From NCBI GenBank assembly GCA_038870975.1, contig JAVZJD010000001.1, positions 736,001 through 800,000 of the forward strand: 64,000 nucleotides of DNA, written 5' to 3'. Made by a program: the position numbers and the translations under genes. The DNA comes from Candidatus Bathyarchaeia archaeon. Lineage in GTDB: Archaea; Thermoproteota; CALKCG01; B24. This document shows positions 46,117-59,138 of the stretch, one piece after another (within the stretch, counting starts at the first letter, position 1; every line of letters begins with the position of its first letter). The notes beneath the pieces are model-generated. The model saw only the letters and a list, made by a program, of their open reading frames with translations, had not been told where the DNA came from and did not search any database.

Positions 46117-46689
46117 TTGCCTAGGAAACTTCTGGCCGCTAGGGCTGATTTGGTTGATGAATTATCTAGGATGGCCAAAGCCAGAAATCAGACTGTCTAC
46201 GGGTTTTTAAACAACATTCTTGAACAGGCTTTGAGACTCCACAAAATGGACATTAAGATTGAAGACGTTGCGAACTCCTACATGGTTATAAAGAACCTTA
46301 AAAACTTGGGTTTCATCCCCCTTCCTGAAGACTTCGCCTATAGGGCTCTAGATGGTATTATTAAAAGTAAGAGTATAGCTGACTCATTTTTTAAACTCGG
46401 TGAGTGGTATGGTAGAGTTTTAGCCGCGCAACTTCCAGATTTTAAACCGATGGAGCTCTTGAGGACTGTTATCAGTGAAATTGCTTGGACAGCTTCGGAA
46501 GTCTCGATTGTTGAAAACGGTGGTGAAATCACTGTTAGATGTATAGGTCCGAGGTTTTCAGAGTCTTATACGTTGGTTTTAGCCAGTATGATTGAGGGCT
46601 TCGCGTTCTCAATAGGCTTTAAAACGACTAAACGCTATGTGACTAGAGGTGTGATCTTTCTAAACCTTAAGAGTGAGATTAATCAATAG
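46117..46689 (+). CDS. Hypothetical protein with an RHH-like N-terminus and a V4R-like C-domain
   Basis: RKLLAARADLVDELSRMAK...; GEWYG; paralog of the next gene. Confidence 0.65.
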   Translation: MPRKLLAARADLVDELSRMAKARNQTVYGFLNNILEQALRLHKMDIKIEDVANSYMVIKNLKNLGFIPLPEDFAYRALDGIIKSKSIADSFFKLGEWYGRVLAAQLPDFKPMELLRTVISEIAWTASEVSIVENGGEITVRCIGPRFSESYTLVLASMIEGFAFSIGFKTTKRYVTRGVIFLNLKSEINQ

Positions 46690-46713: not shown

Positions 46714-47307
46714 ATGGTTTTACCTAAACAGTCGAAGGATAAAAAGCTTGTTTGGGTTAGAGCAGATATACTCTCCCATATAAGCCGAATAGCAAATAGA
46801 GAAGGTAAAACCATAACAACATATGTTAACGAGGTTTTAGAACAGTCGATTCGAGTTTACGATATGAAGCTCACGTTAACTGAGGTTATAGATTTATACA
46901 TGCTCACTAGGATCAGCAGGGAAGGTGGAAATCTAACAATACCTAGGGATGTAGTCAAGTACTTAATATCCAAAGTCTATAATTCGAATAGAGAAGAGCT
47001 GATGCAGATATTCTACGACACTGGCGCATGGTTTGGCAAATACATACTGGCGAGAATAGGCAGTGAAAACCTGGTAGAAAGGCTTCGGCAGATTCTATAC
47101 GTGAATATATGGGATTTAAATGAAGTTTACGTTGATAAGAATGGTAATACTATTTCGATTAGGTGTGTAGCCCCACAGCTTTCCATGGAAGAGACTGAAC
47201 TCTTAGCCTCTTATGTAGATGGTATGTTGGGTTCTATTGGTTTTAAACCAGTTGAACGTGAGGTGATAAGGGGAATAATAATGGTTAAAGTTGAGGGTGG
47301 GGTGTGA
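46714..47307 (+). CDS. Hypothetical protein, tandem paralog of the previous gene
   Basis: KLVWVRADILSHISRIANREGKT...LEQSIR; GAWFG; RGII C-terminus shared with the previous gene. Confidence 0.65.
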   Translation: MVLPKQSKDKKLVWVRADILSHISRIANREGKTITTYVNEVLEQSIRVYDMKLTLTEVIDLYMLTRISREGGNLTIPRDVVKYLISKVYNSNREELMQIFYDTGAWFGKYILARIGSENLVERLRQILYVNIWDLNEVYVDKNGNTISIRCVAPQLSMEETELLASYVDGMLGSIGFKPVEREVIRGIIMVKVEGGV

Positions 47308-48372
47308 GTGGATAATCCCACTGTACGTAAAGCACTGTTGTATGAAAGTGTCAGAGGGGGTCTTGTTAGATGCCTTCTATGCGAAAGACGCTGTTTAATA
47401 TCTGAAGGGGCTACGGGCTTCTGTGGTACGAGAATCAACATGGGTGGGTTTCTCTACACAATTGTCTACGGAGATATAAACGCGATATCTGTAAACCCCA
47501 TAGAGAAAGGTTACCCAACCGTTGGGTAGCCCTCTAGAAAGCCGCTATATCACTTCTATCCAGGGACCAAAGCCCTTACTTTCTCCACTTGGAGTTGTAA
47601 TTTTACATGTCCATGGTGTCAAAACTGGGTACTCTCAAAGTCTAAACCAGACCCATCTAAGGCGAATTACATAAGTCCTAGAGAGATGATCGATTTAGCC
47701 ATTAAAAGTGGATGTCAGGGTCTTTCAGTATCTTTTACAGAGCCTACTCTACTATTCGAGTATTCGCTTGACGTCTTTCCTCTGGCGCTAAACGCAGGAC
47801 TGTACACGAATTTTGTGAGTAATGGCTATATGACAGTTGAAGCTTTAAAAATGCTCCGCGACTCGGGTCTCCAGTCAATAAAAATAGATGTTAAAGGGGG
47901 TTTAGAAACGGTTAAAAGATTTTGCGGGGCCGACGTCTCCATAGTGTGGAGGAACGCCGAACTCGCGAAAAAGATGGGTGTACATGTTGAAATAGTTAAC
48001 CTAATAATTCCAGGTGTTAATGACGATGAAGCTACGTTGCGAGAGATTATTGAAAATCACGTTAAACGCTTAGGCGTAGAAGTTCCAATACATTTCACAG
48101 CGTATTATCCGGCGTATGAGTTTAAAGCACCACCCACGCCTGTTGAAAAGCTTGAAGAAGCCTATAGAGTTGCCAAAAGCTTCGGCGTTAAATACCCATA
48201 TATAGGTAATGTCCCAGGACATAAGTATGAGAATACTTACTGTCCGAATTGCAACCGTATCTTGATAAGGAGGTTTGGCCTGTTCAGAGTTGAAGTTAAA
48301 CTTAGGGCTGATGGTAGATGTCCAGGCTGCGGTGAACTAATCCCCATAAAACTTTGGAAAAGCAGTACTTAG
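47308..48372 (+). CDS. amrS: AmmeMemoRadiSam-type (PFL-activase-like) radical SAM enzyme; exons 47308-47507 and 47538-48372, 344 aa spliced
   Basis: CLLCERRC...GFCGTR; PIEK|KPLYHFYPG; CNFTCPWCQNW; YIGNVPG...TYCPNC; both parts in one frame, separated only by a TAG inside a 30-nt insert. Confidence 0.9.
47508..47537 (+). other. Bulge-helix-bulge mRNA intron (30 nt)
   Basis: AGAG-AA^A-GGTTACCCAA-CCG-TTGGGTAGCC-CTCT-AG^A; excision gives ATA GAG AAA AAG CCG. Confidence 0.85.
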
Positions 48373-59022: not shown

Positions 59023-59138
59023 GGGCCCGTGGCGCAGAACTCCGCCTATAGTAAGTGAGACATAAGCGGGGTGTGCAAGCAGGACAGCGCATCGGCCCTC
59101 TAAGCCGGGGGTCGTGGGTTCAAATCCCACCGGGCCCG
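59023..59138 (+). tRNA. tRNA-Arg(TCT) with a 41-nt non-canonical intron (59038-59078) at position 15/16
   Basis: Acceptor GGGCCCG/CGGGCCC; D stem GCGC/GCGC; anticodon loop CC-TCT-AA; T arm GTGGG-TTCAAAT-CCCAC; BHB GCGC-AG^A ... GTGC-AA^G. Confidence 0.9.

Follow-up and report, generated by a model that had tools for sequence, protein, structure and literature searches.

How is an enzyme made from a gene whose reading frame is broken by a stop codon inside a conserved motif? The question is raised by a gene for an AmmeMemoRadiSam radical S-adenosylmethionine (SAM) enzyme, encoded at positions 47308-48372 (+) of the window analysed here. The window is a stretch of 64,000 nucleotides (nt), positions 736,001-800,000 of contig JAVZJD010000001.1 (GCA_038870975.1), from a hot-spring Candidatus Bathyarchaeia archaeon; positions given with a handle such as C1 or L138 lie on other coordinate systems than that of the window. 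With high confidence we read the 30 nt at 47508-47537 as a bulge-helix-bulge (BHB) intron of the relaxed HBh' type, lying in the radical SAM coding sequence, and this intron is very probably excised from the messenger by the enzymes of tRNA splicing.

The interrupted radical SAM gene

The unspliced frame is opened by GTG 47308 and reads ...NPIEK GYPTVG* PSR KPLYHF.... Ten foreign codons are placed between NPIEK and KPLYHF, and one of them is TAG 47527-47529, in the same frame as the start codon. After the insert the same frame resumes with KPLYHF, CNFTCPWC and the remainder of the enzyme, up to the stop codon TAG 48370-48372. In profile searches the unspliced reading matched TIGR04337 as a single stretch with 234.3 bits, passing the curated cut-off of 220 despite the insert, and Pfam Radical_SAM (PF04055) was matched as well. 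The CxxxCxxC motif of the family is present as CNFTCPWC.

In public data this gene and its close relatives are represented by gene calls (P0004, P0009, P0002 and P0003) of only 289, 265, 228 and 220 amino acids (aa). The 228-aa call begins downstream of the iron-sulfur cluster motif, the 220-aa call is labelled "radical SAM protein, partial", and CxxxCxxC is missing from both. The initial annotation of this DNA had expected pipelines to miscall the gene, and gene callers were indeed found to truncate it. The short calls confirm mis-annotation and are not evidence of splicing. As annotation pipelines truncate such genes or call them partial, metabolic reconstructions from these metagenome-assembled genomes (MAGs) undercount functional genes.

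Structure of the probable intron

The elements of the predicted intron and its two exons are as follows.

47308..47507, plus strand: exon 1, beginning with the start codon GTG and ending two bases into the split Lys codon; alignments with orthologues set in at residue 1-3
47502..47505, plus strand: 5' strand AGAG of the central helix of 4 base pairs (bp), exonic, pairs with 47532-47535
47506..47508, plus strand: 5' bulge AAA, predicted cut after 47507, by which the Lys codon is restored; invariant in 13 of 13 orthologues
47508..47537, plus strand: 30-nt intron with the in-frame TAG 47527-47529; identical in metagenome contig L138
47509..47531, plus strand: intron hairpin h', a 10-bp stem 47509-47518/47522-47531 (one G-U pair) with the loop CCG
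47532..47535, plus strand: 3' strand CUCU of the central helix, intronic, pairs with AGAG 47502-47505
47536..47538, plus strand: 3' bulge AGA, predicted cut after 47537; AGA, AUA or AAA in orthologues
47538..48372, plus strand: exon 2, with KPLYHF..., CNFTCPWC, the radical SAM core, C-terminal Cys motifs and the TAG stop

Excision of 47508-47537 yields ATA GAG AAA AAG CCG and a 344-aa product with CNFTCPWC. A cut after the second base of each bulge restores NPIEKKPLYHF, in the same register as in intronless orthologues (NPIEKKPFFHF, NPIEKKPLFHF). The minimum free energy (MFE) fold contains the helix, a 3-nt bulge and the stem, with -18.6 kcal/mol and z = -2.98 relative to shuffled sequences.

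Two opposite 3-nt bulges on a 4-bp helix, the geometry of a BHB, are common to all 13 insert-bearing orthologues (see below). A canonical hBHBh' motif is defined by at least two Watson-Crick pairs in both flanking helices (PMC7714728); here the intron side has 10 bp and the exon side a single U-A pair, U47501-A47539. Since the exon-side helix is only one pair in every one of the 13 orthologues, the motif belongs to the relaxed HBh' class.

From the letters alone, the initial annotation had described a 30-nt insert with an in-frame TAG splitting PIEKKPLYHF, an AGAG/CTCT helix with AAA and AGA bulges and a 10-bp inner stem, a weak outer exon helix, and the restoring cut with its 344-aa, CxxxCxxC-bearing product. 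All of these were reproduced by our reading of the sequence. Its interval of 47502-47541 holds for the whole motif and has to be narrowed to 47508-47537 for the intron proper.

An assembly artefact was considered as the origin of the insert and rejected, because the same 30 nt are carried by L138, an independent contig that is 98% identical over exon 2.

Conservation and covariation of the insert

Orthologues of the radical SAM gene were sought in the order, with its 17 genomes, and in 24 genomes from elsewhere in the phylum, and the junction was read in each. This comparison of intron presence and absence had been proposed as a check in the initial annotation. The junction was assembled in 14 orthologues of the order, of which 13 have an insert at exactly the same position. 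The inserts are 30 nt long in the present genome, 29 nt in seven genomes, 33 nt in two, and 21, 20 and 23 nt in one genome each, and the interruption is kept at this one site across four families of the order. The fourteenth orthologue, from genome G008, reads GAG AAG AAG CC without an insert at the PIEKKP site. Outside the order, about 140 orthologues from other orders and phyla, taken from species-genome and metagenome collections, were all without the insert and read GAG AAR AAR CC or GAG ATH AAR CC.

The 13 intron regions were aligned (alignment A1) and examined for covariation. In the BHB structure as described above, 99.2% of the cells were paired, compared with 45-54% when the partners were slid by 1-3 columns, and the observed covariation score was reached by none of 500 shuffles. 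Changes on both sides were found in five of the ten pairs of this structure. RNAalifold recovered the central helix, the AAA bulge and the inner stem, with 5 of 11 predicted pairs changed on both sides. Compensatory changes affect four of the six aligned pairs of the intron hairpin stem, and the first pair of the central helix is switched from A-U to C-G in 5 of the 13 orthologues. The exonic side of this switch is the synonymous change ATA to ATC, matched by U to G in the intron. All ten orthologues that were spliced in silico by the cut rule gave full-length open reading frames (ORFs).

Splicing enzymes

Two paralogues of the tRNA-splicing endonuclease EndA were found in the genome. The first, alpha (186 aa; minus strand, around C1:251571-251813), has the catalytic Tyr, His and Lys and matches the catalytic subunits of S. 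tokodaii and A. pernix (2cv8, 3p1z_B) with E values of 6e-45 to ~1e-45. It aligns without gaps through the Crenarchaea-specific loop, where K40 and K42 align with K44 and R46 of A. pernix. In the second paralogue, beta (185 aa; minus strand, around C1:270239-270493), the catalytic His is replaced by Pro, as expected for a structural beta subunit. The Crenarchaea-specific loop, notably its Lys, confers cleavage of relaxed motifs (PMC3241643), and hBH and HBh' motifs are cut efficiently only by (alpha-beta)2 and epsilon2 enzymes (PMC6379350). The genome encodes an alpha/beta EndA of crenarchaeal type with the specificity loop, predicted to be able to cut relaxed motifs. The ligase RtcB is also present (494 bits in a profile search). 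Its gene, C1:62226-65000 (-), is one 986-aa open frame with an in-frame insert of ~1.4 kb between profile positions 50 and 49, and probably holds an intein.

Processing of the messenger would take the following course. In the pre-mRNA, the exonic AGAG would pair with the intronic CUCU to form the central 4-bp helix. The 5' bulge AAA would be closed by the 10-bp intron hairpin, and the 3' bulge AGA by the single pair on the exon side. The alpha/beta endonuclease would cut after the second base of each bulge, and RtcB would join the exons to ...GAG AAA AAG CCG..., encoding the 344-aa enzyme. If splicing did not take place, translation would stop at TAG 47527, upstream of CxxxCxxC.

As a separate observation, a tRNA gene at 59024-59138 (+) of the window has a matching 7-bp acceptor stem and an insert of ~42 nt in the D-arm region, which is a non-standard intron position. 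Rfam detects only the 3' part of this gene (30.8 bits), and it is mistyped by ARAGORN. The insert fits an EndA of broad specificity.

Other predicted introns in protein-coding genes

The expectation that more such introns exist in this genome was confirmed. Six further BHB introns were predicted by the same cut rule in protein-coding genes of the 1.85-Mb genome, and in five of these genes excision brings back a universally conserved motif.

C1:642258-642288, plus strand: aEF-2, 31 nt, restores LIR-N-IGIIAHVDHGKTT
C1:18967-18999, minus strand: archaeal SAM synthetase, 33 nt, restores VER-K-GLGHPD
C2:34531-34559, minus strand: pcm, 29 nt, restores GQTISAP-H-MV
C2:281640-281656, minus strand: cbf5, 17 nt, restores GHGGTL-D-PPATGVLP and splits the catalytic Asp codon
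C1:609048-609066, plus strand: EndoQ, 19 nt, restores AYG-K-YHWSGHR
C2:705064-705085, plus strand: Lrp/AsnC, 22 nt, no named motif; the join continues with the C-terminal domain typical of the family

The 5' sites read G-AA|A in five of the seven introns of the genome. For cbf5, another register yielding GTLEP was tried and rejected; the register set by the catalytic Asp (GTLDP) fits the cut rule.

Candidates in the genome-wide scan had to combine 3-nt bulges and a helix of 4 bp with a flanking stem no shorter than 4 bp and with a join of ORFs. The scan was very noisy: it gave 23,230 raw candidates, of which 5,430 passed a codon-usage filter, and only candidates with strong hairpins could be recognised by eye. 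The radical SAM intron itself was dropped by the coding filter, and introns with weak stems (EndoQ, Lrp) were missed by the scan and checked separately. The seven introns are therefore a minimum and not a census.

The gene for aEF-2 is essential. An essential aEF-2 cannot be a pseudogene, and the organism must therefore process inserts of this kind. The radical SAM gene and the six others, aEF-2 included, indicate that some Bathyarchaeia must splice several messengers to make the corresponding proteins.

Alternative explanations

Of the explanations that do without splicing, the one that survives best is that the gene is a pseudogene, inactivated by an insert which is mere debris, for instance a small palindromic insertion. 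The in-frame stop here and the frameshifts in relatives are what such a history would leave, public gene calls are shortened or labelled partial, and an intact paralogue with 42% identity exists at C2:153379-154377. However, one and the same site is interrupted across four families, and the precise BHB is retained with compensatory changes. Neither exon is closed or shortened, and the ratios of nonsynonymous to synonymous substitution rates (dN/dS) are 0.05-0.31. Among five species of the genus, dN/dS was 0.08-0.31 for exon 1 and 0.05-0.12 for exon 2, at dS of 0.3-1.9, and in four of the five species the exons are in different frames. These ratios show that purifying selection acts on both exons. 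Had a pseudogene been decaying over such divergence, the two exons would not have remained open and constrained, which speaks against a pseudogene, as do the inserts of the same kind in the essential genes aEF-2 and cbf5 of the same genome. We consider the pseudogene very improbable.

That the insert is instead translated, with TAG read through or recoded by pyrrolysine or a suppressor tRNA to add 10 residues, is an idea which only the insert of the present genome invites, being 30 nt long, in frame and with a single TAG. Ten of the 13 orthologous inserts are not multiples of three and place exon 2 in another frame. Since most inserts are frameshifting, read-through cannot rescue those orthologues. 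All three in-frame inserts contain an in-frame stop, TAG in the 30-nt insert and TAA in both 33-nt inserts. PylS was not found in the genome (best score 18.6 bits against a cut-off of 178), TAG also ends the same gene, and the insert splits an invariant motif that is contiguous in intronless orthologues. Translation of the insert is hardly credible.

Translational bypassing over the hairpin, as in phage T4 gene 60, or synthesis of two separate polypeptides deserves next to no weight: a stable hairpin does follow the Lys codon, but the landing codon for IEKKP is AGA or AUA, unlike the take-off codon AAA (AAA only in L010 and L011), the stop does not directly follow the take-off codon, bypassing would make no use of the conserved 3-nt bulges and 4-bp helix, the very features that EndA measures, and the first listed start in the frame of exon 2 is ATG 47686, downstream of CxxxCxxC.

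The BHB intron is the reading upheld by the conserved site, the insert lengths that are not multiples of three, the covariation, the purifying selection and the presence of the right enzymes, and the claim of an EndA-type intron in a protein-coding mRNA stood accordingly. Several points weigh against it. With only one pair on the exon side, the motif falls short of a canonical hBHBh', and the MFE fold contains a competing pair U47501-A47536. Cleavage of relaxed motifs by the EndA of this lineage is predicted from sequence. A collection of 5.8 billion proteins held no full-length, high-identity protein of the spliced type, only the four short public products listed above. The motif, its conservation and covariation, the frame logic, the selection and the enzymes are observed, and from them we infer the cutting and ligation themselves. 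We also infer, and by inference only, that splicing would be obligatory for production of the enzyme; a regulatory use of the intron is speculation.

Evolution of the probable intron site

Most simply, the intron would have been gained once, in the ancestor of the order, and would later have shrunk to 20-23 nt in one family and disappeared from the lineage of G008. The G008 gene has another 30-nt BHB intron instead (L062:1256-1285), inside CNFTCP-W-C, composed of GCCC, AUA, stem, GGGU and AAG. Its excision restores TGG TGT and CNFTCPWC in a frame that is open for 378 aa when counted back to the next stop upstream. A MAG of Candidatus Nezhaarchaeales has a 29-nt BHB intron (L081:1148-1176) 2 nt upstream of the Bathyarchaeia site, with the helix AUAG/CUAU; excision yields PIEIKP and a frame open for 359 aa by the same way of counting. 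This site would be explained by an independent gain or else by sliding of the intron.

In a sister genus, two sequences (L010:2269-3207 (-) and L011, genomes G006/G007) combine the 33-nt intron with an in-frame insert of 313 aa, located close to the cluster motif. This insert contains a LAGLIDADG_3 domain (E 1e-12) and looks like an intein, by which one gene would carry intervening sequences at both the RNA and the protein level. The same combination of intron and 313-aa insert is possibly present in G022:C24.

A broader picture is tentative, and we regard it as somewhat less than an even chance: BHB micro-introns of 17-33 nt would be proliferating in this Bathyarchaeia lineage, settling where genes, essential or not, are most conserved. 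The radical SAM family would have been invaded repeatedly and independently, at the PIEKKP site in this order, 2 nt upstream of it in the Nezhaarchaeales MAG, and inside CxxxCxxC in one genus of the order. If this is true, repeated invasion implies active intron gain, e.g., by homing-like spread or reverse splicing, and the tRNA machinery would splice mRNA as a routine part of gene expression in some archaea. The orthologues also provide comparative material on gain, shrinkage (from 33 to 20 nt) and loss of tRNA-type introns in coding sequence.

Comparison with known introns

According to a paper from 2020, the cbf5 intron of Crenarchaeota was the only additional BHB intron reported besides that in the leader of HVO_1309 (PMC7714728). 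A review from 2023 counted two archaeal genes and expected more (PMC10485636), and cbf5 introns have been reported only in Desulfurococcales and Sulfolobales (PMC2738675). In the literature searched we found no paper on BHB introns in protein genes of Bathyarchaeia.

The closest known system is the cbf5 intron of Desulfurococcales and Sulfolobales (Watanabe 2002; Yoshinari 2006; Yokobori 2009, PMC2738675). It is likewise short, coding and of relaxed motif, it lies in a highly conserved motif, and its hosts likewise have a hetero-oligomeric (alpha-beta)2 EndA. The differences are in the host gene, here an AmmeMemoRadiSam radical SAM gene, and in the lineage, here Bathyarchaeia. In addition, the relaxed forms differ: the radical SAM intron is an HBh' whose intron hairpin is strong and whose exon helix is almost absent, whereas the cbf5 intron of the present genome is an hBH-loop in which the exon helix measures 8 bp and the intron hairpin is lacking. 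Experiments have demonstrated the splicing of cbf5; that of the radical SAM messenger is deduced from sequence.

The BHB intron in the 5' untranslated region of HVO_1309 in Haloferax volcanii (Schwarz 2020, PMC7714728; PMC10485636) is likewise a case, apart from cbf5, of an mRNA on which the tRNA splicing endonuclease acts. It differs from the radical SAM intron in that it lies in an untranslated leader, is a canonical BHB cut by an alpha2 enzyme, and interrupts no reading frame. The non-canonical hBH and HBh' introns of crenarchaeal tRNAs (Marck and Grosjean 2003; PMC3241643; PMC6379350) share the motif class, the size range and the need for an EndA with the specificity loop. In contrast to these, the host RNA is here a messenger, the cuts must keep the frame, and one strand of the central helix is coding sequence. 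The mechanism is of a known kind; in the literature searched, neither the gene nor the lineage nor the multiplicity has a precedent.

Neighbouring and related genes

Two tandem ORFs, 46117-46689 and 46714-47307 (+), of 190 and 197 aa, lie directly upstream of the radical SAM gene. They are alike by eye, and neither had a match in Pfam. The TGA that ends the second ORF is directly followed by the GTG with which the radical SAM gene begins, an arrangement suggestive of co-transcription and translational coupling. AMMECR1-like (C1:485017-485556) and Memo-like (C2:365375-366208) genes are present in the genome in single copy, and neither adjoins the radical SAM gene or its paralogue.
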